This document shows, in pieces, positions 18,668 through 46,416 of a stretch of 64,000 bases of DNA (within the stretch, counting starts at the first letter, position 1; the number at the start of each line of letters is the position of its first letter). The notes under the pieces are model-generated. The model saw only the letters and a list, made by a program, of their open reading frames with translations. It made no database searches and was not told the origin of the DNA. The stretch comes from an uncultured bacterium (GTDB lineage: Bacteria; Eisenbacteria; RBG-16-71-46; CAIMUX01; WJJG01). The DNA lies in the NCBI GenBank assembly GCA_964612295.1, contig CAZTDY010000005.1, forward strand, positions 1-64,000. The letters run 5' to 3'. The position numbers and the translations under genes are program-made.

Positions 18668-18883
18668 AGCTCCCTCCAATTTTTCAGCTGTCAGCACTCG
18701 AGCAAATCGTACTTTTCGCGTGTGCAATCCGTCTATAAGGGTAGAGGATGGCATCGTCCCTGTCCATCTTGTCGACAGGGAGCGGAAACGCGACTACACT
18801 AACAACATGACACCCCAGTAGCTGGCCATTGGAATGTAGCACGCCGCGTATGTGTGTAAGCGCCATTGAACTGGAGGTGAGCC

Positions 18884-26576: not shown

Positions 26577-26602
26577 TCCCGTCTTCCTCTGATGGGACGC
26601 GC

Positions 26603-27286: not shown

Positions 27287-27577
27287 TAGTTATGGCAGCG
27301 ACCCTCCCCGTCCACCGGGCGGGGCATCGGTCTCTCTATTCCCATCGGCAATCGCCGCCGCCATCTGGATCTACAGCCTTCCGGCGCCGAAGTTGCCAAC
27401 CCCTCCCGCGCAAAGGATAGGCGCCAAGGCTGCCGATCGTTCCAGGTGAGCCAAGGACTTCGATTCAAACAACATCCTGCCTACCGGCAGGGGACACAGG
27501 GAGGTGTCCAGGTGCCGGAAAAGCGCTGTCATCTACCAGCGTGCCCTCGATTCGGGCGCGCCTGGTTCATTCGATTG

Positions 27578-30073
27578 ATGATCCCACTGCTTGCCCTGGC
27601 CGTCTGCGCTGATTTCGCGGGGGCCACGCTCGATCTCCGGGCCGAGGGCGATCGCATTCGAGCGGCTCGGGATCGGATTGCCAGAGAGGGGCTCTCCTGG
27701 CAGGCCGGCTCGACGTCGGTCTCCAAACTGTCCGAAGATGAACTGGCCTGGTTCCTCGGGCTGGACCTTGATCTTCGCGAAACGGCTCCCGGTGAGGTTG
27801 ATTCTCAGGTTCCGCCTGAGGATGCGGGCAGCGGCCCTCGACCGATGAGCGTTCCCGGACTGCCCCCGCAGCCGCAAGGCGGATTCATGATCGCGCCGCC
27901 GCCGGAGGGGGACCATCCCGCCCGCTGGGACTGGCGCGAACATGAGGGCGTCACCGGAGTGCGCGACCAGGAAATGTGCGGCGACTGCTGGAATTTCGCG
28001 GCCACGGCCGCCTTCGAATCCTACGTGCTGATCTACGATGATCAGGAGTACGACCTCTCTGAACAGGATGTGCTCAACTGCAACCCGTACGGATACGGAT
28101 GCAGCGGGGGCTGGATGACGGCCGCCTACAAACATTTCATGCGCAGCGGCGCCCTGGCGGAGAGTTGTATCCCCTACGAGGCGGATGATTCGGGCGCATG
28201 CGTCGACCGCGGATGCGACGTTCTCGACTACCTGAGCGGCTGGCACGATGTGCTCCCCACCGTACCCGACATGAAACGGGCGTTGCTCCAGGGCCCGATC
28301 GCCGTGGCGATGACCGTGCATGAGGATTTCCTCTGCTACACGGGCGGATGCTACGAGTACGACGGCAACGGCACGCCCAATCATGCCATTCTGTTGATCG
28401 GCTGGGACGACACGATGGCCGACGGCGCGGGCGCCTGGATCGGCAAGAACAGCTGGGGAACGAACTGGGGTGAGGACGGGTTCTTCTTCATCCGATTCAA
28501 CCAGTGCGAGGTCGGGTATGGTGCGACCGAGATCGAGTATTCGCCCCGCACCGGCATCGTCATCAACCATACCCCGCTTGCGGAGCAACCGATCGCGGTT
28601 GAGTCCTATCCGATCACGACGCGCGTGGTGAGTCAGGCCGGTCTACTCGACCACGACTCACTTCTTCTGTGCTACTCGGTTGACGGGGTGTCCTATAGTT
28701 CGACACCGCTCATCGCGACCCCCGAGATGGATGTCTTCGCCGCCTCGATTCCGGCGGCCGTGCCGGGCACCACGATTCAATACTACATCGAGGCCGCCGA
28801 TTTGACCGGCCGGGTTCAGACGGCTCCGGTTCGCGCGCCCGCCCAGAGCTACCGATTCCGTTGCGGATACCAGGTGCTCTACGCCTTCGATGGAGAGACT
28901 CCCGACCCCGCCTGGGCCCATGCGGCCATTGAACCGGGTTTCGGAGATCAGTGGCACCGAAGCGAGCTTCGCAACCACACACCTGATGGTGATTGGAGCT
29001 GGAGGTTGGGCCCGGTGGCGGATGCGGACTACGCCGACCTGCTCGACGCCGGTCTGGTCACGCCTCAGATCGCCCTGACCCCCGACTGTGAGCTGCGCTA
29101 TTGGCAGTGGATCGAAGCGGAACACAGTCCCTTCCACATGGGGTGGGCGTACGATGGCGGCCTTGTGGAAATCAGCGTCGATGACGGCGCCTCCTGGGAG
29201 ATCCTGACCCCCGAAGGGGGCTACCCCTACACAACCCGGGTCGGCATGGTGCCCGGGCCGTTTCCCTACGGGACGCAGCTCTTCTCGGGTGGTGTGGAGT
29301 GGCGCGAGATCACCTTCGACCTGAGCGACTACGGCGGACCAGCCCACTTGCGTTTCCACTTCGGGAGCGACGGGGCGATCAACTTCGGCGGTTGGCACAT
29401 CGACGACGTGCGCCTTCTCGATTTCACGGGAGATGGATCATTGGCCGACATCGCTCTCCATGACTTCTGTGCGCGGTGGAGTGATGACGGGGTGGATCTG
29501 AACTGGACCCTTGCCGAGTCGCACCCTTGGATCGGTTTCGTGGTCGAACGCGGCCTGGAGACCGTGGGCGAGTTCATGAATTGCCACATCGAGATGATCG
29601 GTCGGACCGGTGTGTCCGACCCATTGCAGCCCGGCGTCGAACAGCATTGTTTTACCGACGAGCCGCCGGAGCATCTCACGAGCTGCTACTACCGGCTGGT
29701 CGGGTTCGGGCCCGACGACACACGTGAGGTGTTGGGAACGATTCTCGCCACGCGGCAGACCGATGCCGGCGAGCAACCCGTCCGGCCGCAACTGAGGGCG
29801 AACGCTCCCAACCCGGTACGATCGCGGACCACGCTGCGGTTCTACGTCCCGCAGACCGCCGACGGGCTCCCGGTGACGCTTTCGATCTTCGACAGCACCG
29901 GCCGATTGCGGGCCCAACCCCTGAGCGCCCGGCGGATGCCCAGCGGGGAACACGCCTGGGAGTGGGATCGGGATCGTGGGGGAGAAACCGGTCTCGAAGC
30001 GGGGTCCTACTACGCGCGGCTCGAAGTTGGGGACTGGGTCACCACCCGGCCGATGCTATTGCTGCCGCACTAG
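27578..30073 (+). CDS. Papain-family (C1) cysteine peptidase with a large C-terminal extension and a T9SS sorting domain.
   Basis: 'QEMCGDCWNFAATAAFES' (Gln/Cys), 'NHAILLIGWDD' (His) and 'NSWGTNWGEDGFF' (Asn/Trp). Signal peptide 'MIPLLALAVCADFAGA'. C-terminal tail 'GSYYARLEVGDWVTTRPMLLLPH'. Confidence 0.85.
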   Translation: MIPLLALAVCADFAGATLDLRAEGDRIRAARDRIAREGLSWQAGSTSVSKLSEDELAWFLGLDLDLRETAPGEVDSQVPPEDAGSGPRPMSVPGLPPQPQGGFMIAPPPEGDHPARWDWREHEGVTGVRDQEMCGDCWNFAATAAFESYVLIYDDQEYDLSEQDVLNCNPYGYGCSGGWMTAAYKHFMRSGALAESCIPYEADDSGACVDRGCDVLDYLSGWHDVLPTVPDMKRALLQGPIAVAMTVHEDFLCYTGGCYEYDGNGTPNHAILLIGWDDTMADGAGAWIGKNSWGTNWGEDGFFFIRFNQCEVGYGATEIEYSPRTGIVINHTPLAEQPIAVESYPITTRVVSQAGLLDHDSLLLCYSVDGVSYSSTPLIATPEMDVFAASIPAAVPGTTIQYYIEAADLTGRVQTAPVRAPAQSYRFRCGYQVLYAFDGETPDPAWAHAAIEPGFGDQWHRSELRNHTPDGDWSWRLGPVADADYADLLDAGLVTPQIALTPDCELRYWQWIEAEHSPFHMGWAYDGGLVEISVDDGASWEILTPEGGYPYTTRVGMVPGPFPYGTQLFSGGVEWREITFDLSDYGGPAHLRFHFGSDGAINFGGWHIDDVRLLDFTGDGSLADIALHDFCARWSDDGVDLNWTLAESHPWIGFVVERGLETVGEFMNCHIEMIGRTGVSDPLQPGVEQHCFTDEPPEHLTSCYYRLVGFGPDDTREVLGTILATRQTDAGEQPVRPQLRANAPNPVRSRTTLRFYVPQTADGLPVTLSIFDSTGRLRAQPLSARRMPSGEHAWEWDRDRGGETGLEAGSYYARLEVGDWVTTRPMLLLPH

Positions 30074-30082
30074 CGCCCAGGG

Positions 30083-30760
30083 CTACGCCTCGGCGGTCTC
30101 CTCCATGGCGATCAGAGAGACGCCATCGACACCCTCGACCGATCCGAGTTCTCTCACGAACTCTCGGCCGCGCTCGGGAGCTTTTAGCCGCACGAAATAG
30201 GACAGCTCGAGAATCGCGCCGTCGCGCCGGGTGTTGATGTTCAGTAGCGTGCTCTTCTTCAAATGTTCCTTGAAAACGCTCTCGTGGAGCATCGACCCGC
30301 GCTCATCCGGCGTAAGAGAAAAGCGCAAGAGCAGGTCATGACTGCGCGTCGAGCCGAAACTGCCCAGGTGCAGGAGAATGATCAGGAGAACCACCGCGCC
30401 GGTTCCCGCCAGAGCGATGAGATGATATCCAGTGCCGGCGGCCATCCCCGCGGCGAGAGCCAGGAACACGAACGCGATGTCGCGCGTGTCCTTGATCACC
30501 GTTCGGAACCGAATGATGGACATGGCGCCGACGAGACCGAAGGCCCGCGCGAGGTTGTTGCCGATCACCATCATCACGATCGCCGTGATCATGGGCAGCA
30601 GAACCAGGGTGTTCACAAACGAAACCGAGTAGTTGAAACTGCGATGGGTTCGGCGATAGGAGATGGCGACGAACGCGCCCAGCACGAACGCGATGCCCAC
30701 GTTGAGCAGAATGTCCACGAGTAGGAATCGTTCACCGCTGAGTACCAGATCGTTCAACAT
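30083..30760 (-). CDS. DUF4956-domain membrane protein, commonly paired with VTC-domain proteins.
   Basis: Four predicted TM helices plus a C-terminal soluble domain. Adjacent to the VTC gene. Confidence 0.6.
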   Translation of the reverse strand: MLNDLVLSGERFLLVDILLNVGIAFVLGAFVAISYRRTHRSFNYSVSFVNTLVLLPMITAIVMMVIGNNLARAFGLVGAMSIIRFRTVIKDTRDIAFVFLALAAGMAAGTGYHLIALAGTGAVVLLIILLHLGSFGSTRSHDLLLRFSLTPDERGSMLHESVFKEHLKKSTLLNINTRRDGAILELSYFVRLKAPERGREFVRELGSVEGVDGVSLIAMEETAEA

Positions 30761-30790
30761 GGTCCTGTCCTCGGTTGCCCCTTATGGCTG

Positions 30791-31570
30791 CTAGTTCCAC
30801 ACTTCCAGGGCGGCGACCGAATCATCGGCCTCCTCCCACAGGTCAATTCCGTTGCAATACTTCGATATCGGTCTGTTGCTTCGATTGAGGAACGCTGTGA
30901 CGGGGCGTAGCCAAGGAGGCATGACCTCGTCGAACTTGATCTCTAGAATCTGCTTTCGATTCGTCAGGTGGCGCAGTCCACGCTCTGCGAAGATCTCGTC
31001 CACGACCGGCCGATAGATGCTGCGCACGTCATAGTCGAACGTCACCCGGGTACGCTTGCTCTCGACACCGATGAAAGCCTCGCGATCGTACACGACCAGC
31101 ACCGAGGGGTCCAACTGCAGCGCTTCCTCGAGGAAGAAGAACCGGGTGAGCGTCGCCCCCGCCGCGTAGGAGAGATTCAACTCCTCTGGAAAGGGCAATG
31201 CGAGGCGTTCGGCCGGCGCCCTGCGCAGTAGGTGGCTTGCCTGATCGTAGGACATGCCCACCCGCTCTTTGTAGATCGTCACCCCGTACTTACGTTTGAT
31301 CTCGAAGAAGGCGGCGGCGTCCTGCGAATAGCGGTTGTAGGTCCTCACGCGGAGTTTTTTCCGAATCGCCTCGCCCGCCTCCTTCTCATAATAGAAACGT
31401 AGGGCCGCGGTGTCGTAGTAGACGCTGCGAACGGTGTAGCGGTGTCTCGGACGTCCCTGCGAGTGGGGGTCGTGGACCATGAACGGCGCGATCATCCGGC
31501 GAATCTGGGCGATCTCGTCGGGGCTGACGAAATACTTCAGCTCGTATCGGCCAAATCTTGTCTGCGCCAT
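30791..31570 (-). CDS. VTC-domain (polyphosphate polymerase / CYTH-like triphosphate tunnel) protein.
   Basis: 'RYELKYFV' N-terminus and 'EIKRKY', characteristic of the VTC / SPX-associated catalytic domain. Confidence 0.7.
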   Translation of the reverse strand: MAQTRFGRYELKYFVSPDEIAQIRRMIAPFMVHDPHSQGRPRHRYTVRSVYYDTAALRFYYEKEAGEAIRKKLRVRTYNRYSQDAAAFFEIKRKYGVTIYKERVGMSYDQASHLLRRAPAERLALPFPEELNLSYAAGATLTRFFFLEEALQLDPSVLVVYDREAFIGVESKRTRVTFDYDVRSIYRPVVDEIFAERGLRHLTNRKQILEIKFDEVMPPWLRPVTAFLNRSNRPISKYCNGIDLWEEADDSVAALEVWN

Positions 31571-31618
31571 GGTCGGTGTCCCGGCGGGGGCGATGAATCA
31601 CGCCCGCCTTGTTGTTCC

Positions 31619-32704
31619 TCAAACGCCCAAAGTATGATCCATCGTGTGCCGCAGTCGATCGGTCAGCCATGCAAGCAGGGTGATCTTCTCGCCGCGGAAC
31701 TCCACGTTTCCCTTCATTCCCGCCACGGACGCACGACCCGGATTGGGGATCGCGACCGTGACCCAAACCACTGACTGCTGATGGACGGAGCTGACCTGCC
31801 GATCCACCCGGGATACCCAGCCCTCGAATCGGCGGCTGCCCATCCCATCGGTCTTCACGATCGCCGTCTGCCCGGCCGCCAGGGTCTGCGCGCGCGAGGG
31901 TGAGACCGGGGCGATCGCGTAGAGGGTGTCCATGGCGGCCACGCGCACCAAGGCCGAGTCGCCCTGCAGGGTGACGATCTCTCCCTGAATGGGGCAGCGG
32001 ACGCGATTCTCCTCGAGTCGTTCGGCCGCGATGTCGATTCGCTGCTTCAGCCAGTCCCGGTGCGCCCGCCACCCGGCAATCACCGCCTCCTTCTCGCCGA
32101 CCTGAGCCACCTCCAGCCGGAGTTGCGCGGCCTGGAGGTCCGCCTCCGCGGTCCGCTCCAGGGCCTTGGCGAGATCGAAGGCTTCATTGCTCACCAGCCC
32201 CTGCTCGAGGAGCTGCTGGGCGCGCTCGTACTCGGTGGACAAGCGGTCGTGCTCGGCCCGAGCCGCATCCACCTCGCTGCGAGCCAGCGCGACCAATTCA
32301 TCCCGTTCCCCGGTACTCGCGGCCCTGAGGTTTGCCTCGGCTTCGAGCAGCTGGGGGCGCAGCTCTTCCAGTGCGCTGCGCGTTTCGTGAGAATCGAACC
32401 AAGCCATCTCGCTGCCCGCCGGAACTATGAGGCCGGGGGTCAGATCGGGCGCCATGCCGAATCGGACGAGATCGCCTCGTTCGAAGCGATAGAGGTCGAT
32501 CTGCTGGCGATCGCCCTTGCCCCGCTCGAGGAGCCGAGCTTCAAACGTGTCGGGCTCGGTTTTCTGAAGGATCCACTCGCTTTGGGGGAAAACCCGGCAG
32601 GGTCGCGTAAAGCGCATCCCGAAGCGGACCCAGGTGGAGGTCAGCACCAGGAGGACCAGGGCGGCGACCACCCCGACCGTCATGATGAAGTGCCGATGAG
32701 ACAT
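31619..32704 (-). CDS. HlyD-family membrane-fusion / periplasmic adaptor protein.
   Basis: N-terminal TM 'FIMTVGVVAALVLLVLT', a long coiled-coil, and a C-terminal beta-barrel region. Confidence 0.7.
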   Translation of the reverse strand: MSHRHFIMTVGVVAALVLLVLTSTWVRFGMRFTRPCRVFPQSEWILQKTEPDTFEARLLERGKGDRQQIDLYRFERGDLVRFGMAPDLTPGLIVPAGSEMAWFDSHETRSALEELRPQLLEAEANLRAASTGERDELVALARSEVDAARAEHDRLSTEYERAQQLLEQGLVSNEAFDLAKALERTAEADLQAAQLRLEVAQVGEKEAVIAGWRAHRDWLKQRIDIAAERLEENRVRCPIQGEIVTLQGDSALVRVAAMDTLYAIAPVSPSRAQTLAAGQTAIVKTDGMGSRRFEGWVSRVDRQVSSVHQQSVVWVTVAIPNPGRASVAGMKGNVEFRGEKITLLAWLTDRLRHTMDHTLGV

Positions 32705-32911
32705 AATTCTCCCGGTTTCCCGTGACGCCGACGCGCAGGTGCGTTCGTTGCCACACTCACCTACTATTCTACCACGGCGGCTCGAAAACCCGCCACCGCA
32801 TCCCGCCCGCATTTCTGGCCAATCCCAGCCGCGAGCGCGTATCTGCAGTCTCTGACATCATCTAGCACCGGCTCGCCGGACCGAGGGGGCCTCTTGGCCT
32901 CGTCTACCTAA

Positions 32912-35900
32912 CTATTCAATAATCAAAAACTTGCGCGATTGCTTGAGATCTTCGGTCTCCAAACGGACGAAGTAGACACCGGGCGAAGCCGGCCATCCAC
33001 CGTCCGTGCGCCCATCCCAGACGAGATCGTGGGGCCCGGCCTGCAGCATCCCGCCGGCCAGCTTGCGCACCCGCCTCCCGGCCACATCGTAGATCTGCAG
33101 ATCTACCCCGCGCATGCGGTCGAGCGTCAGTCGAATGTGGACGCGATCTCCACCCGGATTGGGGGCCGGCCGGGCCAGACTGAGGGACCAGGGGGCCTGC
33201 TCGGACCCGTCTTCTTCTCCAGGATCGACATCCAGCACGTAAGCGCTGTTGATTGTCCCCGGGGTGCCGTAGCCGGTCGAAGCCGCCCAGGACTGGGGGA
33301 GGGCGTTGTCGAATCCGGCCGAGATCAACTCCAGGGTGGGGCCGAGGCCGTCCGGCTCGGACGGCCAGGGCTCGTCATCGTCATAGGTCAGCGAATCGTG
33401 GATCGCTCCTTCTGAATCGAACAGGCGGATCAGCTCGCCGCCGCCGCTGAGCCCGAAGTCGAATTCGCCGCACAGAGGCCCATCGTTGGGGAAGACGGCG
33501 CGGAACAGGGTGCTGTCCTCGCAGAGCACCAGGAACCCTCCCGGGGGGACCTCGACCCCCGGGGGAATCTCGAAGTTGTGCGCGTCCTCCTCATCCTTGA
33601 ACACCCAGCCCTCCAGGTCGGCGGTGACCTCTGCGTTGTTGTACAACTCGATCCAGTCGCCGACGTCGACATCGTCCTCGCTGTTGTAGTTGATCTCGTT
33701 GATCACGACCGCATCGGCCGGAAGCGGCGCGGGTCCGAACAGCGCGCTAAGCGTGTAGTCGTCGTCCGGTTCGATCACGGCCACCGGATCCAGCGGAAGC
33801 CCATCGTCGGACCACTGGAGGAACTGATACCCGGGGGCGGGGATTGCGGACAGCGTCATGGGAACCTGTTTGAAATAGGTCCCCGACCAGAGCTCGCCGA
33901 TGTCGATGGCGGTGAGGGCGATTGTTCCCGACTCGGGCGGGTAGACATCCAGGGTGAGCGTGTACAGCCCGTCCAGGCCGAACTCGTCGATCACGTGCTG
34001 CCGGGCGGGGTCGGTGCGGAGCTCAAGAAACTCGAGCACCTCCTCGGTCTGTTCCTCCCAGATGCCCAACGTAAAACCCCACCGCTCCATGTGGGTGGCG
34101 ATCTCCATCTCGATCCCGGCCATCACGGCCTCGGCCACCGGCGTCGTCACCGATGGGAGGAACGTGCTGTTCATATGATCTGCGTAGCGGTTGATGAATC
34201 TGTATCTGAACGCCTCGTTCTCGAGCAGGCTGCGCATCAAGAAGGTCGACCAGGGCGGATTGGGCCAATCCGGCCCATCCGGCTCGAGGGCGAAGGAGAG
34301 CGTGTTGTGATACGGGCCCACATAGAAACCGATGCCCCAGTCCATATCCTGGAGCAGCCACCGCCATCTTCCGTTCGGCGTGTCGGGACGCCAATAGCGG
34401 ATGTTCCCGCCGGGCCAGTCGTTGTTGGCGAACCAGATGCGGGTCAGGTAGTAGGTGGCGAAGTCGTCCACCTCCATCTGAGACTCGATGTAGGCGAAGT
34501 CCTCGTCGTCCTCCAATCCGTTGGTCTCGATGTAGCCGAGCATCGCGAGGTAGTGTCCGGCGGATCCCTCCATGACGACCTGCTGGTCACGCAGCAGATC
34601 CACGTTGTCGGGATCGACCCCGTAGTTATCGGCCAGGAAACGCGCGTCGAGCCTCTCCCGGATGTTGTGAATGCCCCAGTACACGCCGTTCAAGTAGACG
34701 ACCGAAGGGCTGTAGGCCTGGTAGCCGACTCCGGTGGAGGCCGCCAAGCGCTGCTGGAGCGCATCGCGCAGATGGGCCAGACACCAGTCGTTGCCCGCGT
34801 TGCGAAGGATCAGGCGCGTAAAGGTCTCGATGTCCTTCTCGTCGAAGAACGGGTAGGCCATCTCGGGTGGGCCGTAGTCCTCGTCGGCGATGAGCCGGAG
34901 CGCCTTTTGGGGATAGGTGCGCGTCCAACCCCCATGGATCTTCATGCCCATCTCCTGGCGCAGCCGGGTGATGCCATCGGTTTCAAAGAACTCGACGTGG
35001 ACGGGACGTTCCCAGTCCTCCCAGTAGTTCGCACCGTGATGCGGATACTCAGGGTCGGCGTTCTCCCCCAGGATGTAGATGCCCGTATCGGTGTCCCAGA
35101 GATTGGGGGGATCGGTCGCGAGAGAGAAGACCGGCAGATCGGTGGCTTCGTCGACGATATAGGTTCGCGAGCTGATCGGACTGGGCAGATACCCCGACTC
35201 AAAGGACCGCGCCCGAATCACGGTGGTCGTATCGACAGCGATCGGTGAGCCGTACAGCGCTGAACCCTCGGAGGGCTCGGCCCCATCCAGGGTGTAGTGG
35301 ATTTCTGCCCCGGGCGAGTCAGTCCAGAGCGTGACCAGGACCGGTGCGGCGTAGAAGCCCGGATCAGGTGAGAACTGCACAGCAGGCGCGAAGTCGACTC
35401 CTCCACCGGTGCCGTTGGGGCTCTCCGGGGTGGATTCGCTGAAGTAGTGCCAGGTCTCCGATCCGTCGGGGGCCCGACCTTTGGAGATGTCCTGCGGCAG
35501 AGAGTCGGTGGCCATACTGTCGAACACCGCGCCCGACGCGGCGGAGAGCATGAGCTGCTCGCCCTGGCGGTCGATCTTGAAGTTCGTGTGCAGGTGGGGG
35601 AGGAGAAACTGCACGAAGGGATCGGGACCTGCGCCGCCGGTCGGCTCCGAGCGGCCGACCGAGAGTATCGGGATCATGCTCAGGTCATCACTGCTCAGTG
35701 ACGTATTGTGCACCTGGATCGCCAGGGTGTTGTCGCCAGGGCGCAGAAGTCCGCTCACATCGGGGATCAGGTAGGTCTCAGGCACCCCTCCCCGGTAGAT
35801 TGCGGCCTCATGGGAGATCGTCGCCGGCAGGTCCCAGGGGGGATCACCGGTGTAGTAGATACCCTCGCGGAACAGCTCTTCCCCGTTCAGGTAGACCACG

Positions 35901-36538
35901 AACGCATCGTCGTAGTCGATGTGGAAGCAGAGATGCGTGATGCCCGTCGTGTCGCTGACCACCACCGTGCGGCGCAATGAGGCTGTCAGACAAGGGGGAA
36001 GCAGGGTGGCGTCGTCGCCGTCCCCGAAACCGAATCCGCTGGGCCCCTCCGACCAGGAGGAGTCATCGAACCCGTCCTCCCACCAATCCTCCGGCGGCGC
36101 CGTCGCATTGGCGCGGTAACGCCAGAGGTCGCCCCACATGACAACCGTGTCCCAGTAGGCTTTCTGGGCCAGACGATCCTTGCTCGAGGCGAAGATGAGG
36201 AGGTGCTCACCAGCCCGGATATCCCATTTGGGAAGCTGCCACTTGTAGGGATCGTCCGGATCGTCGGTCAGCCCACAGTTGAAGAGCTCCACCTCCTCGG
36301 GACCCGTGTTGTAGAGCTCGATCCAGTCCGAGGTGTCGCCGTCTTCATCGAGAATGCCCTGGGTGTTCGACGGCAGGTATTCGTTGATGAGGATCTCGCT
36401 CCGTCCCACACCCGGCAGAGCGGCAAGAAGGAAGGCAACGCAAAGCGCTAGCGCGATCATGCGCCCGGTTTTCGCCTGAGACACGTGGGGACCTCCCAGG
36501 ATGTCCTCTGCTGTGACTGCCACAGCAGGTGCACTCAT
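32912..36538 (-). CDS. Giant secreted protein with a lamin-tail domain, a CotH domain, a second lamin-tail domain and a T9SS sorting domain.
   Basis: LTD motifs 'ILINEYLPSN...DWIELYNTG...LFNCGLTDD' and 'VVINEINYNSEDDVDVGDWIELYNN'. CotH core 'RLILRNAGNDWCLAHLRDAL...VVYLNGVYWGIHNIRERLD'. C-terminal tail 'GVYFVRLETEDLKQSRKFLIIE'. Its ATG abuts the TAG stop of the upstream gene. Confidence 0.8.
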   Translation of the reverse strand: MSAPAVAVTAEDILGGPHVSQAKTGRMIALALCVAFLLAALPGVGRSEILINEYLPSNTQGILDEDGDTSDWIELYNTGPEEVELFNCGLTDDPDDPYKWQLPKWDIRAGEHLLIFASSKDRLAQKAYWDTVVMWGDLWRYRANATAPPEDWWEDGFDDSSWSEGPSGFGFGDGDDATLLPPCLTASLRRTVVVSDTTGITHLCFHIDYDDAFVVYLNGEELFREGIYYTGDPPWDLPATISHEAAIYRGGVPETYLIPDVSGLLRPGDNTLAIQVHNTSLSSDDLSMIPILSVGRSEPTGGAGPDPFVQFLLPHLHTNFKIDRQGEQLMLSAASGAVFDSMATDSLPQDISKGRAPDGSETWHYFSESTPESPNGTGGGVDFAPAVQFSPDPGFYAAPVLVTLWTDSPGAEIHYTLDGAEPSEGSALYGSPIAVDTTTVIRARSFESGYLPSPISSRTYIVDEATDLPVFSLATDPPNLWDTDTGIYILGENADPEYPHHGANYWEDWERPVHVEFFETDGITRLRQEMGMKIHGGWTRTYPQKALRLIADEDYGPPEMAYPFFDEKDIETFTRLILRNAGNDWCLAHLRDALQQRLAASTGVGYQAYSPSVVYLNGVYWGIHNIRERLDARFLADNYGVDPDNVDLLRDQQVVMEGSAGHYLAMLGYIETNGLEDDEDFAYIESQMEVDDFATYYLTRIWFANNDWPGGNIRYWRPDTPNGRWRWLLQDMDWGIGFYVGPYHNTLSFALEPDGPDWPNPPWSTFLMRSLLENEAFRYRFINRYADHMNSTFLPSVTTPVAEAVMAGIEMEIATHMERWGFTLGIWEEQTEEVLEFLELRTDPARQHVIDEFGLDGLYTLTLDVYPPESGTIALTAIDIGELWSGTYFKQVPMTLSAIPAPGYQFLQWSDDGLPLDPVAVIEPDDDYTLSALFGPAPLPADAVVINEINYNSEDDVDVGDWIELYNNAEVTADLEGWVFKDEEDAHNFEIPPGVEVPPGGFLVLCEDSTLFRAVFPNDGPLCGEFDFGLSGGGELIRLFDSEGAIHDSLTYDDDEPWPSEPDGLGPTLELISAGFDNALPQSWAASTGYGTPGTINSAYVLDVDPGEEDGSEQAPWSLSLARPAPNPGGDRVHIRLTLDRMRGVDLQIYDVAGRRVRKLAGGMLQAGPHDLVWDGRTDGGWPASPGVYFVRLETEDLKQSRKFLIIE

Positions 36539-39280
36539 CTAACGCAGGTAGAGCAGTCTCACCGTCGGCGGCGAGTGGGAGAGCCCACCCGGCGCAGTAT
36601 TCGAACGCGCGTCTGATATGCGGGCACGGCCCACATAGAGCCCCGGCGGGGCAAACTGCCCGGTCTCGAGACGCCCGTCCCACACCCAGCGGTCGGAGGC
36701 TCGTGACATCTGGACGCGGCGGCACAGGCGTCCGCCGACATCGAAGATCTCGAAGATATCCGCGAGCGTTCCCGCATCCAGGTGGAGCGAGACGCGGTGG
36801 GTGAACGGGTTCGGCCAGGCGTGCAGCGAAGGCGCCGCGGTCCAGATTCCATCGAGCGCGGGGCCGTCGATGCCTTGATCGACGTCATTGAAGGTGCCCG
36901 GTGTCGGATCCGGGTCGAATGCCCAGCGATAGTCGCCGTCGGAGATTCGCGCCCTGGACACGTCGGTCGTCTGGGCACCGAAGAAGACGAGATCGACCAG
37001 GTCGATATCGTCGGGATCTACCGGGTCCCCGGCGTCCGGTTCCTTCTTGTGGAGTGCGATGCGCTCTCCCTCTTTCTTCAGCTTGAAGTTGGTGTGCAAC
37101 GGACCCTGCGTCTGGTCGTTGTCGACCCAGACGATCACATGGCTCAGGCCGGCGATGGTCGTGTCCGGGAACTGCCACTGGATCGAATCGTCCAGCTCGT
37201 CGGTCAGGAAGTAGTCGTTCAGATTGACCGGCGTCGGCCGCGGATTGTAGATCTCCAGCCAATCGTCGAACTGACCGACCTCGTCGCTGAGGGTCGTCTC
37301 GTTGTCCGCCATGAACTCGTTGATGTACAGGTCCTGAGGCGTGACGAGGGCCTCCAGATTCGCCAGCATGAAAGCGTATCGTTCGGTGGCGAACTCGTCG
37401 ATCTCCGCGTCCCCCTCGGTGAAGCGTTCGTTGTCTTCCCAGAACCACTTGCGCACATCCATGATACCGTTGGCCTCGACCACCGCGTGGGCCGTGTCGA
37501 TCTCCGCGTAGATGTCCTCGAGCGGCGCGAGTTCGGTCAGATGCTCGTGAATGATCGACGCGTAGGTGTTCTTCAAGACCGGCTCATTCATGACGCGGTA
37601 GGCGAGCATGTTCCCCGTCGGGCTGGCGCCCTGCGTGAGGGACTGGGTCCAGTAGGTGTTCGGCAGGAACACCGCTCGGATGCCCCAGGACAGGTCCTTG
37701 TCCCAGGGAATCATCTGCCAGAAGTCCGTATCCAGGTCATGACAGAGGTAGAAGTTCTTCACGATCGCATCGCCGTCGTTGACCGTGTTGAGCACGGCGT
37801 AGTAACGCAGGTACTCCTCGATGTCCAAGAAGTCGACGAACGTCTCGTAGAACTCCTCATCGGCGACGTAGTTCAAGGTCTCGATGAAGAGGATCAGATC
37901 CGCCCAGGGCGTCTCCTCGTTGGTTTCCTTGTCGTAGTTCTCATGGTAGTCGAGACTGTCGGGATAGGCCTGGAGACGGTCGAAGCACTTGTAAATGGAA
38001 GCCCCGTTGTCGAGATCGCGCGCCTGCAGGAAACGCGCGTCGACCTGCTCGACGTCACAGTAGACCCCCATGTGCTCCCCGTTCAGCACGATGACCCGCT
38101 CCTGCGCGGTCGGGGCGGGCACGCCGCAGGTGCGGAACAGATCCATCGACAGGGGGGATCGCATGAGGCACGGGTCGCACATCTCGCTATTGCAGTTGAA
38201 CTTGGTGCGGTTCTCGTGGTCGGCGTCGGTCAACTTGATCTTGTAGGACTTCTTGCTCAGCGGCCGGACGACATTCCCGCGGTAGCGGAGGCCGGCATCA
38301 TACAGAGAGTCACCCATCTGCACGGTGCAGCTGTAGTAGATATCCGCGTTGATGTCTTCGTTGAGCATCGCCAGACTGTCCGGATCGATCTCGATGAAAT
38401 AGACCGGGAGCGGCGAATCCTCGTGCAACATCGCCGCGGCGGTGAAGGGTCCGGTCGGATCCGATTCGTTTCCGAAGGCATCGACCGCCGTGATCTGATA
38501 GCCGTACTCGATCAGGGGAACGAGGGTGTTGTCCACGAATCGGCTGACGAGATTGAGTTCGCCGATCTGCTCGACGAACTGCCCGCCCTGCTCCACGCGC
38601 CGGTAGACACGGTAGCCGGCGACATCCTCTTCCTCGTTGTCTTCCCAGTTGAGAATGATCTGCTCGTATCCGCCCAGGATCTCGGTCAGCACCGGAGGGG
38701 CGGGGGCGATCGCGTCCGGCTCGTGATCGAGCACGCTGATCCCGCAGATCTGCGTATGGGGGTGGGGGACGTCATCGAGGTACAGCTGGCCGTCGTTGAC
38801 CGTCACCGCGAACCGGTAGTCCAGCGCGTAGTCCTTCTCGACGTGCGCGTAGACGTCCAGGTCCTCCAGGAGCAGGTTTCCCTCGCTCCACCAATCCATC
38901 GTGTAGTTGTCTGCCCTGTGGCTCCAGGCCTCGCAGAAATTGAGGGTGAGGAGGTAGTCTCCGTTGGGAACGTCGATCCGGTAGTTGCCGGTGGCCGAGT
39001 GGAAGGACTTGTAGAGCCGGGGATCGATGCACCCACCGACCGTCCGCCAGTTGATGTAGTCGCCCGCGAGAAGCCAGCCGTATCCCTGTTCGACCGAGTA
39101 GGGACCGTCGCCGACGTATTCGGTGCCGTCGGTCAGCGTCAGGGGCGAGCCGCCGGAATTGATGTGCAGCTCGAAATCGGCCCAGGCCGGAAACGCCGGC
39201 AGCAGGCAGGCAAGACCGATGACGAAAAGAACCCAACTGCCGGGACGATCAGTGGCGCAAAGATGCGGAACCAGCCTCAT
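36539..39280 (-). CDS. Giant secreted protein with malectin-like carbohydrate-binding, fibronectin-III, CotH, lamin-tail and T9SS sorting domains.
   Basis: 'FELHINSGGSPLTLTDGTEYVGD...YGW' (malectin-like), 'VAGYRVYRR' (FN3), CotH core 'YKIKL...', LTD 'LYINEFMADN...DDWLEIYNP'. C-terminal tail 'GLYVGRARISD'. Signal peptide 'VLFVIGLACLLPAFPAWA'. Confidence 0.8.
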   Translation of the reverse strand: MRLVPHLCATDRPGSWVLFVIGLACLLPAFPAWADFELHINSGGSPLTLTDGTEYVGDGPYSVEQGYGWLLAGDYINWRTVGGCIDPRLYKSFHSATGNYRIDVPNGDYLLTLNFCEAWSHRADNYTMDWWSEGNLLLEDLDVYAHVEKDYALDYRFAVTVNDGQLYLDDVPHPHTQICGISVLDHEPDAIAPAPPVLTEILGGYEQIILNWEDNEEEDVAGYRVYRRVEQGGQFVEQIGELNLVSRFVDNTLVPLIEYGYQITAVDAFGNESDPTGPFTAAAMLHEDSPLPVYFIEIDPDSLAMLNEDINADIYYSCTVQMGDSLYDAGLRYRGNVVRPLSKKSYKIKLTDADHENRTKFNCNSEMCDPCLMRSPLSMDLFRTCGVPAPTAQERVIVLNGEHMGVYCDVEQVDARFLQARDLDNGASIYKCFDRLQAYPDSLDYHENYDKETNEETPWADLILFIETLNYVADEEFYETFVDFLDIEEYLRYYAVLNTVNDGDAIVKNFYLCHDLDTDFWQMIPWDKDLSWGIRAVFLPNTYWTQSLTQGASPTGNMLAYRVMNEPVLKNTYASIIHEHLTELAPLEDIYAEIDTAHAVVEANGIMDVRKWFWEDNERFTEGDAEIDEFATERYAFMLANLEALVTPQDLYINEFMADNETTLSDEVGQFDDWLEIYNPRPTPVNLNDYFLTDELDDSIQWQFPDTTIAGLSHVIVWVDNDQTQGPLHTNFKLKKEGERIALHKKEPDAGDPVDPDDIDLVDLVFFGAQTTDVSRARISDGDYRWAFDPDPTPGTFNDVDQGIDGPALDGIWTAAPSLHAWPNPFTHRVSLHLDAGTLADIFEIFDVGGRLCRRVQMSRASDRWVWDGRLETGQFAPPGLYVGRARISDARSNTAPGGLSHSPPTVRLLYLR

Positions 39281-39537
39281 GTTCTCACCTACGCGACGGT
39301 TGTTCTCCAGGATCTTGTCTAGTCCACATACATTATAGCACGTTGGGGGGGGTCTCACAATGTGCCCCCGGGCACGGAAGCTGTTGTACCGCAAGTGGAT
39401 ACAGGTGTCAGCAGTGTGGGAGGCGGGGGCGGAATAGGCCTAAGACGGCGAACACCGCCAGCAGGGTCGCCGGCGGCGCTCGCAAAAGTCAGTTCTGCGT
39501 GGGCGTGGTCCGGAAGCAGCCCTATCGCCCGGGGCGG

Positions 39538-40449
39538 CTATTTGTCTTCAGGGGTCTGCCGCTTGATTTGGTCGCCCGTACGAGGGGTGCCCCCAAGTAC
39601 CGACTGGTCCTGAGGTTGGCCGGTTCTGACCTCCCTGTCCCTCTCTTCCTTGGCCTTTGCACGCCTGTTCTTGGCCCGTGCCCGGCGCATGTCCGCGGTC
39701 GCCTCCTGCGCCGCCTCGGCCGCCGCTGCAACTACGGGGTCCTCAGGGATGTCCTTGGTGAGCGTGATGTTCTTCCCGCCGAAATCGACGATGCTGTTAT
39801 CCGGCGAGACGATCAGCCGCGTATTGGCCAGGTGCTGGCCTCGCGTGCCGGAGCGATTGAGAATCGTCTCGGCGATCAGGACGGGCGCCTCGTCTTTGCG
39901 CGTGACATGGCCTCCCAGAACCACATCGACCTCCGGCAGGGACGAGGTGTACTGCTCCATCGACTTGGTATCGACATGGGCGAGGAGAACGAGGATATCC
40001 ACCTGAGGCCGAACCTCCGGGATCAGCTGCTGTAGCGTGCCCATCGGCGGAAGGAGACGCAGCCGATTGCCGACCTTGTTCATCACGCTCGTGTTCATCT
40101 GGTTTTCGCTGATCGCGCTCAGGAATCCGACCGTGACGCCCCCGCGCTCCATGATCAAGTATTGCTGACCGATGGGCTGCCATATGCCGTCCTTCATCTG
40201 CTCGACGTTGGACACCACCAGCGGCAAGGGAGCAACCTGCTGCAGGCTGTCGATCATGTCGAAGAACTCGAACTCGAGCTCCCCGTAGGTCACGGCGTCG
40301 TATCTGAGCCGGGCCATCTCCATCCAGCTGGCGATGCTTTCCGGGTAGCTGTTCTTCCAGTTGCGGTGAACGAAGTCACCACCATCGGCCAGGAACATGA
40401 TTCCGCCCTGCTTCCGCAGAGTATCGACGAGGGCGGCCCGCCGGGCCAT
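39538..40449 (-). CDS. Calcineurin-like metallophosphoesterase / 5'-nucleotidase N-domain-like protein. It may be the C-terminal part of a UGA-recoded lipoprotein (see 40468..40629).
   Basis: 'GGIMFLADGGDF' (motif II), 'YDAVTYGELEF' (GNHE-like) and 'VVLGGH'. Aligns with the UshA region 'GLAAQKTLVDGIRKE..GGSVLLLSGGD'. Confidence 0.65.
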   Translation of the reverse strand: MARRAALVDTLRKQGGIMFLADGGDFVHRNWKNSYPESIASWMEMARLRYDAVTYGELEFEFFDMIDSLQQVAPLPLVVSNVEQMKDGIWQPIGQQYLIMERGGVTVGFLSAISENQMNTSVMNKVGNRLRLLPPMGTLQQLIPEVRPQVDILVLLAHVDTKSMEQYTSSLPEVDVVLGGHVTRKDEAPVLIAETILNRSGTRGQHLANTRLIVSPDNSIVDFGGKNITLTKDIPEDPVVAAAAEAAQEATADMRRARAKNRRAKAKEERDREVRTGQPQDQSVLGGTPRTGDQIKRQTPEDK

Positions 40450-40467
40450 CCCACCCTTCTTGCCGTG

Positions 40468-40629
40468 TCACCCACAGGGGACAATGTCGGCGTTGAAGCA
40501 GCTCTGCGATATGATTCGGACTTCCACATTCGTGGGTCGTTTGCCGCTGGGACCGCCCGTGAGGGCGCAGCCCTGGAGCAGGGCGAGGGTCGCGACACCA
40601 GCAACGAGGAAGCTCAAGCCTCTTTTCAT
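40468..40629 (-). CDS. Lipoprotein signal peptide plus roughly 30 aa, ending at an in-frame TGA directly upstream of, and in frame with, the 39538..40449 ORF.
   Basis: 'MKRGLSFLVAGVATLALLQGC...VEVRIISQSCFNADIVPCG-TGA-HGKKGGMARRA'. SD GGAGA. Confidence 0.45.
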   Translation of the reverse strand: MKRGLSFLVAGVATLALLQGCALTGGPSGKRPTNVEVRIISQSCFNADIVPCG

Positions 40630-40777
40630 GGGTCTGTCTCCGCAGTTACTTGGTACTCACACGTCCTAGGATAAGGAGTCTGCCGAGGCCCGCCGTCCAC
40701 ACCGGCCACCCGAGGCAGATCGCAGGAGTATACCCCAGAGCGGGGCAAACATTCCAGCGGGCTGCACCCCGACCCCT

Positions 40778-41638
40778 CTACTTCTTCTCCGCCCGATCCG
40801 GCTTGTAGAGTCTGTCCGGAATCGGGAGTTGGCCCTCGTCCGCCGCAGCGGCCTTTCGGGCATTTCGTTTTCTGTCCTTGGCCTCCTTGCTGCTGGCCTG
40901 CGCCTGGAGGGCGGCCTGGGCGATGACCGGGTCCTCGGGCATATCGACGGTGAGCGTGATGTTCTTCCCGCCGAATTCGCAGATCTCGTCGTCGGGCGAG
41001 ATGATCAGCCGCGTGCTGGAGATCGCGCGTCCCCGCGTTCCCGCCCGATTGAGGATCGCACTGTCCATCTGCGCCGGGCCCAGGTCCGTGATCGGCATGT
41101 GTCCGCCGACGACGACATCCACGTCCTCCATGCTGTCGGCGTACTCCATCATGGTTCCGGGGTCCAGATAGGCCAGCAAGACCACCACCTCGCATTGGTC
41201 CCGGAGTTTTCGGGAAACGAGGCGGGTTGTCTCGTGAGGATCGAGAATCCTCACCTTGTTCTCGTTCCTGCGACGGACCGTGTTGGAGATCACGATGTCA
41301 TTGACGACGCTCATGACGCCCACCCGAATTCCGTTGCGCTCTACAATTCGATAGGGCTCCCCGAGCGGAACCCATTGGCCATCGACTGACTGCTCCAGGT
41401 TCGTGCAGACCAAGGGAAGGTCCACATTCGACCGCAAGCTATCGAGCTCATCCCACTGGTTGAGCTCCTGGAATCCGAAGGTAACGGCGTCATAACCAAG
41501 CCGCGCCATCTCGGTCCAGGTGGCTTTCGTCTCCGCCAGGTTGCGTTTGTTCTTGTGCGAGAAGCTGCCCGCATCAACTAAGACGAACGGCACCTCCGCC
41601 TTCCTGAGGTCGTCGACAAAGCTGGCCCGCCGGGCCAA
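40778..41638 (-). CDS. Paralogous metallophosphoesterase / 5'-nucleotidase-like protein; tandem duplicate of 39538..40449.
   Basis: 'PFVLVDAGSFSH', 'YDAVTFGFQELNQW' and 'VVVGGHM'. Collinear with the upstream paralog. Confidence 0.65.
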   Translation of the reverse strand: MARRASFVDDLRKAEVPFVLVDAGSFSHKNKRNLAETKATWTEMARLGYDAVTFGFQELNQWDELDSLRSNVDLPLVCTNLEQSVDGQWVPLGEPYRIVERNGIRVGVMSVVNDIVISNTVRRRNENKVRILDPHETTRLVSRKLRDQCEVVVLLAYLDPGTMMEYADSMEDVDVVVGGHMPITDLGPAQMDSAILNRAGTRGRAISSTRLIISPDDEICEFGGKNITLTVDMPEDPVIAQAALQAQASSKEAKDRKRNARKAAAADEGQLPIPDRLYKPDRAEKK

Positions 41639-41656
41639 CCCACCCTCTTTGTCATG

Positions 41657-41808
41657 TCACCCGCAGGGGACGACTTCGCCGTGGAAGCAGCTTTGCGCGA
41701 GGATCCGCACCTCGACATTGGTGGGCCGCTTGGCGGATCTCCACCCGCCGCAGCCCTGGAGCAGCGCAAATGTCGCCAGCAGGGACACCATCCATAGGAA
41801 GCGGTGCA
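41657..41808 (-). CDS. Lipoprotein signal peptide segment ending at an in-frame TGA, at the same conserved position as in the paralog.
   Basis: 'MHRFLWMVSLLATFALLQGC...VEVRILAQSCFHGEVVPCG-TGA-HDKEGGLARRA'. SD GAGGAGAG. Confidence 0.45.
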
Positions 41809-42016
41809 TAACTCTCCTCAAGGGCTCGATGGAATCGAGCAGGGACCATGGCCGGAGTTGTCTACATTCTAGTAATACTATTCGGCCAGGCCGGTTCCCG
41901 TCCCCGGCATTTCTCCCCGGATCGCCATCGGAGGATCCAGGGCGAAATCCGTCTAAGGTGCTTGATAGTAATCACTTGTGGTGATAGCCGGCCGGGCGCC
42001 TATTTGCCGCCCTCGC

Positions 42017-43084
42017 CTAGCGGATGAGACGCAACAGGACGCTCTCGGACCTCCCGGCGGTGTCCAGACGGACGAGATACACGCCTGTGGGTAGGAGATG
42101 CCCCGTCCCGTCGCGCCCGTCCCAGGTGATCAGGTGCGCGCCGGGGGGGCGGTACCCCTGATCGAGCTCCAGCAAGCGGCGTCCTGAAAGGTCGAACAGC
42201 CCTGCGCGAACCCTGCCAGCCACCGGCACCTGGTAGCGGATGGTCGCGGTCCCGAGAACCGGATTCGGCGAGACCGGGCCCACCACCAGAGTCGGTCGGT
42301 TCGAGTCGACGGGATGCGCGTCCGTGCCCGCCATCGGATCGGGGATCCAGGTCGCTCCCCCGGTCGAGTGATAGGCAGGATAGGGATTCGTGAACGCGAT
42401 CCACTCGCCTCCCACCCCCTGAGCGAGGTCATAGGCGAAGCAGGGAATGCCATCATCTCCTCGCGTGGCGGTCAGGTACGCCGTGTTGTTGCCCACGGCC
42501 ATTCCGCGCCCCTGTCCATTGCTGGCCGGGATCGTATCGACGAGTTTGATCATCTCGTCGCTGCTCAGGTCGATCGAGTAGAGGCCGGAGTCGCCATACT
42601 CCGTGTACCCGTAGAGGAGGCCGTCGGCGGCGTTGTAGTCGAGCGCGAAGAAACGGAATCCTTCTGTGGTGTAGACATCCAGCGCGAGCACCGCGTTGCC
42701 CGTGGCCGGATCGATCTCGTAGATCCCTTTCGGGGTGGCGTAGTTCGAAAAGCCCCAGAGCGTATTGTCTCCGTAGGCCAGGGCATGGACATCGACACTG
42801 ATGGTCGACAGGTACTGCGGATATGTTTCGGGCGTTGCGGTGAAGAGCTCGGTCGTGAATGCGCCATTACAGAGGTAGAGAAGGCCATCGGGCGTGGCGG
42901 CCGCACCGCTCACATCGAAGGCGTAGTGGTTGTCATACGAGACGTTCGGGAAGCCCGCCAAGTCCGTGGAACGGGTGATCGGTTCGGACCCTTCCAGGCC
43001 CACGAAGAGCTGCTGCGCCTGCCCCGGTGCGCCATGCAGAAGGAGAATCGACAGCAGTACCCAGCCCACAGTTGCTACTCGCAT
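42017..43084 (-). CDS. Secreted hypothetical protein with a T9SS C-terminal sorting domain.
   Basis: Signal peptide 'VGWVLLSILLLHGAPGQAQ'. C-terminal tail 'GVYLVRLDTAGRSESVLLRLIR'. Its start overlaps the upstream stop (TGATG). Confidence 0.7.
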   Translation of the reverse strand: MRVATVGWVLLSILLLHGAPGQAQQLFVGLEGSEPITRSTDLAGFPNVSYDNHYAFDVSGAAATPDGLLYLCNGAFTTELFTATPETYPQYLSTISVDVHALAYGDNTLWGFSNYATPKGIYEIDPATGNAVLALDVYTTEGFRFFALDYNAADGLLYGYTEYGDSGLYSIDLSSDEMIKLVDTIPASNGQGRGMAVGNNTAYLTATRGDDGIPCFAYDLAQGVGGEWIAFTNPYPAYHSTGGATWIPDPMAGTDAHPVDSNRPTLVVGPVSPNPVLGTATIRYQVPVAGRVRAGLFDLSGRRLLELDQGYRPPGAHLITWDGRDGTGHLLPTGVYLVRLDTAGRSESVLLRLIR

Positions 43085-44169: not shown

Positions 44170-44322
44170 TTGGTTCGTGCGCGTGAATCTACAGTAGGCC
44201 AGCGCCCGCCCGACCCGCAACCGTCGAAACGAAAGACCGTTCGCAGCTTGACCCGCGGACCTTTGGAGTGTCAGGCTTGTTGGAACTGGCGGGGGGCCCT
44301 GGAACACACGAGGTGGGCTGTC

Positions 44323-46413: not shown

Positions 46414-46416
46414 AGG

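Follow-up and report, generated by a model that had tools for sequence, protein, structure and literature searches.

The gene set closest to the one described here is known from Gram-positive bacteria. In streptococci, clostridia and bifidobacteria, genes for CotH, a polyphosphate polymerase, DUF4956 and DUF4832 adjoin the pel operons (Whitfield et al. 2020, PMC7112168). In Streptococcus intermedius a cotH/VTC/DUF4956 set is formed by SIR_1594 (CotH), SIR_1593 and SIR_1592 (DUF4956); deletion of SIR_1594 or SIR_1592 altered the amount of Pel and halved aggregation in one medium, and the authors of that study, published in mBio, could not find synteny of cotH/VTC/DUF4956 outside pel loci (PMC12345266). 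We have analysed a stretch of 64,000 nucleotides from an uncultured bacterium of the Eisenbacteria (contig CAZTDY010000005.1, positions 1 to 64,000; hereafter the window), in which two genes for CotH proteins with export signals and lamin-tail domains (LTD), here called A and B, are followed by a trio of genes coding for a HlyD-like periplasmic adaptor, a VTC-domain protein and a DUF4956 membrane protein. This cluster is a diderm variant of the cotH/VTC/DUF4956 set that was known solely beside Gram-positive pel operons. Contrary to the report cited above, the synteny was found here in dozens of non-pel loci, which extends the set to diderms without pel and separates the module from Pel biology. 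As to function, we regard it as an evenly balanced possibility that A and B are catalytically competent CotH phosphotransferases, exported and aimed at glycans, which are tied to a polyphosphate machine.

The window cluster and the pel-locus set have in common a secreted CotH protein with its catalytic residues, a soluble VTC-domain protein and an adjacent DUF4956 protein of the MgtC/ACT type. The window differs by having two CotH paralogues with LTD, lectin-type modules and C-termini of the type IX secretion system (T9SS) type, by the absence of DUF4832, and by the additional HlyD-like adaptor, which is not listed in the Gram-positive pel sets; a periplasmic adaptor would fit an organism with an outer membrane. 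Pel genes appeared neither in the 22.7-kb gene map that surrounds A and B (26539..49280) nor among those larger open reading frames (ORFs) that were scanned in the rest of the window.

The single components also have described relatives. Bacillus CotH (PF08757; structure 5JD9) belongs to the same fold family as the CotH domains of A and B and has the same lysine, Asp...Asn and Asp-x-Asp positions. However, it is a single-domain protein of ~360 aa whose targets, CotB and CotG, are reached within the mother cell (PMC7821199), whereas A and B carry export signals and combine the CotH domain with lectin-type, LTD and sorting modules. Closer in setting are two proteins of the Clostridium thermocellum cellulosome, Cthe_0239 (LTD, LTD, Fn3, CotH) and CseP/Cthe_0044 (CotH), which like A and B are extracellular and in a polysaccharide-handling environment (PMC6083626). 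Given the precedent of Cthe_0239, a combination of LTD, FN3 and CotH on a secreted protein is not unusual. Unlike A and B, which end in a domain of the T9SS/FlgD_ig type, the C. thermocellum proteins are listed as cellulosome components, and they have neither Malectin nor a nested jelly roll. The 259-aa VTC-domain protein shares with the yeast VTC complex (3G3Q, 7YTJ, 8I6V) the VTC tunnel domain, and is closest to the catalytic subunit Vtc4, but it is without the SPX domain and without fused VTC-type transmembrane helices; its membrane partner in the window is the unrelated MgtC-like DUF4956 protein instead of the channel helices of yeast VTC. The yeast complex couples polyphosphate synthesis to transfer across the membrane, and the review describing this treats the distribution of VTC as eukaryotic (PMC10657179). 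A literature search found neither a functional study of a bacterial VTC protein nor a demonstration of polyphosphate synthesis by one.

Domain architecture and catalytic residues of A and B

Two long minus-strand ORFs occupy 32912..39394 of the window. The original prediction, made from the letters of the sequence, had described two adjacent genes within 32912-39280 which code for giant proteins with CotH and LTD domains, each ending in a T9SS sorting domain, the 913-aa protein having malectin-like and FN3 modules in addition. Two consecutive ORFs (32912..36538 and 36539..39280) and the CotH, LTD and malectin-like domains were confirmed, the domain scores all being above the profile cut-offs (Table 1). 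At 913 and 1190 aa, however, the proteins are large and not giant, and the gene for the Malectin protein, which had been taken for the second of the pair, is in fact the upstream one.

Gene A has the same gene call on 16 public metagenome contigs; over 22.7 kb, two of these contigs agree with the window at 99.96-100% identity. The N-terminus of the A protein is signal-peptide-like, with a hydrophobic core at aa 16-34 and the sequence ...AWA/D, and is followed by Malectin, an FN3-like module, CotH, LTD and a weak C-terminal domain of the FlgD_ig type. The Malectin domain also matched a malectin structure in the PDB (9ikp, E = 0.0039). The FN3-like segment gave no match at E <= 1 in a Pfam scan; it does align to residues 143-244 of P0036 (E = 5e-9), overlapping an fn3 repeat that Pfam annotates in that protein (PF00041, 162-245). 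The C-terminal domain of A matched FlgD_ig below the cut-off of 27 (17.7 bits, E = 0.0035) and was not matched in a search with the TIGR04183 profile. It aligns with the region of B which reaches from the second LTD to the C-terminus (E = 7.7e-11), and PF13860 is present in several A orthologues. The T9SS sorting domain claimed for both proteins was thus recovered in B, while in A it is a possible one. The promoter-like site in front of gene A matches 10 of 12 consensus positions and is putative, being assigned from the consensus match alone.

In B the order of domains is signal peptide, an LTD split by a nested jelly roll, a CHB_HEX_C/Fn3_assoc module, CotH, an InlB B-repeat-like module, a second LTD and a T9SS type A domain. 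When the residues of the jelly roll (aa ~101-292) were cut out and the ends joined, the first LTD scored 38.8 bits over positions 8-105 of 109 (cut-off 34.3), and the LTD total of B over two stretches was 87.0 bits against the same cut-off. The predicted structure of aa 100-300, which holds the insert, had a predicted local distance difference test (pLDDT) score of 87.5 and a predicted template modelling (pTM) score of 0.86. With the jelly roll nested in the first LTD of B and the Malectin domain in A, both proteins carry a lectin-type module.

The stop codon of A had been described as directly abutting the start of B in the sequence TAGATG. These letters are present, the A stop being immediately followed by ATG, but the ATG is not the start of B. 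For a test of the start we used a relative (L173) whose B protein is 86% identical. There the junction ATG is replaced by GTT, the 54 nt after the A stop carry a 1-nt indel, and an in-frame internal ATG at codon 27 of B reads CCT. The stretch CATCCTGGGAGGTCCCCACGTG is unchanged between the window and L173, and the Shine-Dalgarno sequence GGGAGG (36492..36497), its 7-nt spacer and GTG 36484 are fully conserved. From the GTT, the indel in the spacer and the conserved Shine-Dalgarno sequence with its GTG we conclude that B starts at GTG 36484, 54 nt past the A stop, and has 1190 aa; with this start its N-terminus is normal and signal-peptide-like. Public gene calls give B 1190 or 1182 aa, and one of them matches the GTG 36484 start. 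Translational coupling of A and B via TAGATG was rejected on the comparison with L173 and is an artefact of the longest ORF.

Alignment of the catalytic residues to Bacillus CotH, the check which the original prediction had proposed, gave a clear result, as the lysine, the Asp...Asn pair and the Asp-x-Asp motif of Bacillus cereus CotH are kept in both A and B. A aligned directly to the B. cereus structure 5JD9 with E = 3.8e-36 over 348 residues (A 290-637). A direct sequence search of the PDB with the CotH domain of B gave no match, and B was aligned to 5JD9 via intermediate homologues; the CotH domains of A and B are just 22% identical to each other. The key residues are K344, R374, E411, D504, N509, D527 and D529 in A and K527, R573, E610, D689, N694, D713 and D715 in B (numbering of the 1190-aa form). 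The lysine motif reads EKKSY in B. cereus CotH, SKKSY in A and PQKA in B; the catalytic Asp...Asn motif NFDGFVHN, NDGDAIVKN and NNDWPGGN; and the metal-binding Asp-x-Asp motif PWDYD, PWDKD and LQDMD, respectively. All catalytic residues of CotH that were checked are kept in both proteins.

The same positions are nearly constant in the homologues. The seven key positions of B are invariant in 20 B orthologues, and in the larger sets they are kept in 116-119 of 119 B-type and in 29-33 of 33 A-type homologues; among the latter the lysine, the Asp...Asn pair and the first metal-binding Asp are kept in 31-33. In CotH ORFs adjoining VTC clusters the seven positions are kept in 17-27 of 29, where the shortfall is partly due to gaps in truncated ORFs and the second Asp of the Asp-x-Asp motif is often Asn. 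The mutants D228Q and D251A of Bacillus subtilis CotH are catalytically inactive (PMC7821199). From the identical spacing of 23 residues we infer that D228 and D251 are probably equivalent to the aligned aspartates of A and B. Such near-total conservation of catalytic residues favours enzymes, and a purely adhesive role fits poorly with it. Judged by their residues, A and B appear to carry an intact and catalytically competent CotH kinase core.

A and B are nothing out of the ordinary within their family, which is very large and uncharacterised. The A type (Malectin-CotH-LTD) is rare: apart from the cluster of the window itself there are ~32 others, of which the nearest are 47-58% identical, and a partial A homologue without the Malectin module is named Candidatus Eisenbacteria. 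The B family gave >2,294 matches, with >2,000 near-full-length homologues of strikingly uniform architecture. The best 120 of these have 1,061-1,516 aa (most 1,150-1,250), a coverage of 89-100% and identities of 40-54%, except for two closer relatives at 63% and 86%. Relatives of B occur in at least 595 species genomes, which include Eisenbacteria, Cloacimonadota, KSB1, Marinimicrobia, Ignavibacteria, Calditrichota, Bacteroidota and Balneolaceae. NCBI labels the homologues of B as "CotH kinase family protein" or "T9SS type A sorting domain-containing protein", and a literature search for CotH proteins as T9SS cargo found none; secreted proteins of the CotH family are very common yet functionally blank.

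Linkage of CotH-LTD genes to the HlyD-like, VTC and DUF4956 genes

The three genes downstream of B were not mentioned in the original prediction. A, B and the genes for the HlyD-like, VTC and DUF4956 proteins share a strand and are separated, in this order, by 54, 207, 48 and 30 nt. The HlyD-like protein matched PF13437 (HlyD_3) with 26.1 bits (cut-off 22.2) and the NCBIfam adaptor families with E = 7e-17 to 1e-8, all far below their cut-offs, and its similarity to MacA and MexJ is weak (E about 0.01). No recognised transporter or outer-membrane channel gene adjoins the HlyD-like gene. In the VTC protein a hydrophobicity check found no signal peptide and no transmembrane helix. A profile built from 23 VTC homologues matched yeast Vtc4 (3G3Q) with E = 3.3e-18 and Vtc2 and Vtc3 more weakly, and several Arg, Lys and Glu positions do not vary among these 23 bacterial homologues. 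The DUF4956 protein combines a helical membrane domain with a C-terminal ACT-like domain, and its family is represented by 6,170 clusters (50% identity) at E <= 0.001 in a library of 1.84 billion proteins.

Two samples were used to assess the linkage: 80 metagenome loci around VTC homologues with 30-54% identity (L090-L169), and 80 genome loci of B orthologues, in which neighbours within 10 kb were recorded. On the VTC side, DUF4956 follows VTC in 71 of 80 loci, and a HlyD-like gene precedes it, abutting or overlapping, in 52 of 80. A CotH gene is present in 25 of the 80 loci overall; where both flanks are 3 kb or longer the figure is 12 of 25, and where they are 5 kb or longer it is 10 of 22. 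It is on the strand of the trio in 23 of the 25 CotH-positive loci (on the opposite strand in L132 and L152) and directly flanks the trio in most of them. The GC content of the CotH-positive loci varies between 27 and 64%. There are only 3 near-duplicate pairs among them, and at least 22 non-redundant lineages are represented. The adjacency of CotH and VTC is, by our own estimate of the chance figure, far above chance for a family with few copies per genome.

Both architectures take part in this linkage: the trio-adjacent CotH ORFs include A-like and B-like ones. L129, for example, has a complete B orthologue, and L139 codes for a protein of the form Malectin-FN3-CotH-LTD. The order seen in the window, a tandem CotH pair and then the trio, recurs in L139 and L151. 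The linkage survives REARRANGEMENT, as seen in the relatives L173, L171 and L170 and in L020, L039, L139 and L151. Of the closer relatives, L173 has the same gene order as the window, L171 has A - HlyD - VTC - DUF4956 without B, and in L170 B (51% identical) is followed by an LTD-only protein and a DUF4956 - VTC - HlyD set in convergent orientation. In the Ignavibacteria loci L020 and L039 the order is HlyD - VTC - DUF4956 - B orthologue, with abutting genes. HlyD-like, VTC and DUF4956 form a tight conserved core, its genes abutting or overlapping in most of the loci, with CotH-LTD as its commonest accessory partner, and the pair in the window is one instance of this.

An LTD is also present on 23 of the 29 trio-adjacent CotH ORFs, several of the 29 being truncated at contig ends. 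The LTD-only protein of L170 (11535-13592, plus strand), which lies between the B orthologue and the convergent trio, has 685 aa with LTD and FlgD_ig and is without CotH. LTD-only ORFs are also found near the VTC trios in L095 and L096. The LTD, beyond CotH alone, may be linked to the trio. About half of the well-flanked copies of the trio have neither a CotH nor an LTD gene nearby.

On the side of the B orthologues, the full trio was found in 2 of the 80 loci (both Ignavibacteria, L020 and L039), and DUF4956 alone in 1 more. All-against-all clustering of the ORFs from the 80 genome loci gave no general conserved neighbour of B orthologues; the other large cluster consisted of antisense ORFs. 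A conserved unit of A and B was also rejected, because the A orthologues in L006-L009 and L171 are without B and most B orthologues are without A.

Table 1. Positions of the genes, domains and other elements of the CotH-LTD cluster in the window
Feature	Position	Strand	Size or residues	Remarks
Promoter-like site of gene A	39332..39360	-		TTGTGA-17-TATAAT (with TG); ~50 nt upstream of gene A ATG
Gene A	36539..39280	-	913 aa	first transcribed of the pair
A Malectin	38774..39169	-	aa 38-169	PF11721 48.5 bits, cut-off 23
A FN3-like module	38453..38740	-	aa 181-276	between Malectin and CotH
A CotH kinase domain	37367..38290	-	aa 331-638	PF08757 195.8 bits, cut-off 23.8
A lamin-tail domain	37046..37339	-	aa 648-745	PF00932 46.3 bits, cut-off 34.3
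A C-terminal beta-sandwich	36542..36808	-	within last ~115 aa (799-913)	FlgD_ig-like, possible sorting domain
Non-coding A-B spacer	36485..36538	-	54 nt	contains GGGAGG
Gene B	32912..36484	-	1190 aa from GTG 36484	longest ORF 32912..36538 = 1208 aa
B jelly-roll domain nested in first LTD	35609..36184	-	~190 aa, aa ~101-292 of 1190-aa form	resembles GH2 N-terminal sugar-binding domain
B CHB_HEX_C_1/Fn3_assoc module	35171..35368	-		PF13290 60 bits, PF13287 53.7 bits
B CotH kinase domain	34013..34942	-		PF08757 144.5 bits, cut-off 23.8
B InlB B-repeat-like module	33737..33916	-		divergent; PF18998 24.7 bits, cut-off 23.6, segment scanned alone
B second lamin-tail domain	33383..33715	-	best stretch 942-1052 of 1208-aa ORF	PF00932
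B C-terminal T9SS type A sorting/FlgD_ig domain	32921..33163	-		TIGR04183 30.6 bits, cut-off 23; PF13860 38.3 bits
HlyD-like periplasmic adaptor	31619..32704	-	361 aa	membrane-fusion protein; one N-terminal transmembrane helix
VTC-domain protein	30791..31570	-	259 aa	PF09359 132 bits
DUF4956 membrane protein	30083..30760	-	225 aa	61.2 bits; MgtC-like

Possible roles of the CotH-LTD proteins

The domain content, the conservation of the catalytic residues, the export signals and the gene linkage described above are observations, whereas export itself, the phosphoryl donor and the substrate are proposed here from them. If A and B are phosphotransferases functionally coupled to a polyphosphate machine, Malectin in A and the GH2-N-like jelly roll in B would steer the proteins to a glycan-rich target, and the C-terminal sorting domain would hold B, and probably A, at the outer membrane or pass them through it. 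The cytoplasmic VTC protein, docked on DUF4956, would make polyphosphate from ATP at the inner membrane, and the HlyD-like adaptor would connect VTC/DUF4956 to the periplasm or the outer membrane. Outside, the CotH-LTD proteins could use or act on the exported phosphoanhydride polymer and phosphorylate a surface or matrix polysaccharide or protein.

The known CotH reportedly uses ATP. That polyphosphate serves as the phosphoryl donor of CotH, or is bound by the LTD, is speculative, and we consider it unlikely that the complete scheme applies, in which the trio makes and exports polyphosphate and the CotH-LTD proteins use it rather than ATP on surface glycans or proteins. If true, a polyphosphate donor would explain how extracellular kinases work where ATP is scarce, and the adjacency of CotH-LTD to a Vtc4-like enzyme and an envelope adaptor presents a testable source of an energy-rich phosphoryl donor.

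Several results weigh against a tie of A and B to a polyphosphate machine. In 77 of the 80 genome loci of B orthologues there is no VTC, DUF4956 or HlyD-like gene within 10 kb; the A orthologues in L006-L009 and the B orthologue in L172 stand alone with no trio nearby; and nearly every second VTC trio is without a CotH gene in its vicinity. With such unlinked CotH genes and CotH-free trios, the trio and CotH can work when not adjacent, and perhaps without each other. In the window itself B and the HlyD-like gene are 207 nt apart, which makes their co-transcription uncertain. DUF4956 is unlike the membrane channel of yeast VTC, being similar to MgtC, which is known as a regulator and not as a channel. 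An outer-membrane partner was not found, and no T9SS machinery gene was among the window ORFs scanned, in which genes of the type IV pilus or type II secretion system (T2SS) type alone were seen. Finally, this analysis gave no evidence for any CotH enzyme using polyphosphate.

The unlinked genes could also mean that A and B are independent secreted CotH kinases or lectin-like adhesins, acting by themselves on polysaccharides or proteins of an environmental or host-like kind as the cellulosomal CotH modules may do, and that their adjacency to VTC is functionally meaningless. The 77 B orthologues and the A orthologues in L006-L009, which have neither the trio nor another conserved neighbour, agree with this, as do the LTD/FN3/CotH proteins of the C. 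thermocellum cellulosome, for which no link to polyphosphate is known, and the promoter-like site that A has of its own. Yet a meaningless adjacency would not be expected to place CotH in about 40-48% of the well-flanked VTC loci, usually as the flanking gene and in that many non-redundant lineages, or to persist through changes of gene order and with either type of CotH, and we consider independence of the trio rather doubtful. The original prediction had offered the same pair of roles, surface kinase or lectin-like adhesin; the conserved catalytic residues speak for the first, and a pure adhesin does not sit well with them.

The frequent presence of the LTD next to the trio would also fit a different relationship, in which exported polyphosphate is the target of the CotH-LTD proteins and not their donor. 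They might bind it through the LTD so as to anchor it, cap it or transfer it to surface glycans, or else might regulate the trio. The 23 of 29 trio-adjacent CotH ORFs with an LTD and the LTD-only proteins beside trios (L170, L095, L096) are in line with this. The LTD also occurs in extracellular nucleases, which handle the polyanion DNA, and its removal lowers the activity of ExeM in vitro, although the ExeM authors call the role of the LTD unresolved (PMC6085458). S. intermedius strains that lack CotH or DUF4956 have altered exopolysaccharide levels (PMC12345266). That the catalytic Asp, Asn and Lys are so strictly kept speaks for phosphotransfer, which a binding or regulatory role neither excludes nor requires. 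Overall, this relationship seems quite improbable to us.

The MgtC architecture of DUF4956 leads to a further explanation, namely that the trio is not a polyphosphate exporter at all and consists of a cytoplasmic triphosphate-tunnel enzyme with an MgtC-like regulator, the CotH proteins using another donor, such as periplasmic nucleotides, and the genes being co-regulated under phosphate stress. MgtC affects ATP synthase and PhoR (as cited in PMC12345266), an earlier preprint of the same paper suggested that polyphosphate may stay cytoplasmic, and two 5'-nucleotidase-like lipoprotein genes are located just upstream of A. On the other hand, in diderm-like loci the trio constantly begins with the gene for an adaptor-type protein (52 of 80), whereas the lists of the Gram-positive sets do not have it, a pattern that fits an envelope-spanning function. 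In addition, catalytic Vtc4 is a better match to the VTC profile than are Vtc2 and Vtc3, which are non-catalytic. We hold this explanation to be very improbable, and continue to prefer A and B as exported phosphotransferases connected to polyphosphate.

Other features of the window

Long antisense ORFs are located opposite B (33578..35248, plus strand, 556 aa) and opposite A (36782..39322, plus strand, 846 aa), and equivalent ones cluster across the loci of B orthologues. They were rejected as genes and look like by-products of GC-rich coding sequence.

The other genes around A and B code for a C1 peptidase, an isochorismatase, the 5'-nucleotidase-like lipoproteins, a DUF362 protein and pilus proteins. 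The lipoprotein-like genes upstream of A are a pair of paralogues (39538..40629 and 40778..41812, minus strand; lipobox LLQGC). Each contains an in-frame TGA (40468..40470 and 41657..41659) within the conserved motif ...VPCG-TGA-H(G/D)K.GG.ARRA, and gene callers split each gene into ORFs of 50/53 aa and 286/303 aa. L173, the 86% relative, has kept the TGA together with both its flanks, and the changes near it are of the synonymous type. The read-through product matches the metallophosphatase domain of 5'-nucleotidase (2Z1A, E = 6e-8; Metallophos, 22.7 bits), and the in-frame TGA possibly encodes selenocysteine at the place of the first metal-binding motif. The GC hairpin after both TGAs was no more stable than shuffled sequence, and an Rfam scan of the window found nothing.

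At least six proteins of the window have a C-terminus of the FlgD_ig type. Besides B and, weakly, A, they are encoded at 16403..18754 (-), 19140..20462 (-), 27446..30073 (+) and 42017..43087 (-), and include a beta-propeller protein, a lactonase-like protein, a C1 papain-like peptidase and a DUF6923 protein. The FlgD_ig-type domain seems to be a general export or anchoring tag in the source organism.

A gene at 11848..15321 (+) codes for a ClpB-like double AAA+ protein of 1157 aa with a C-terminal match to PCRF (peptide chain release factor) at aa 977-1051 (26.8 bits, cut-off 24), an unusual fusion.

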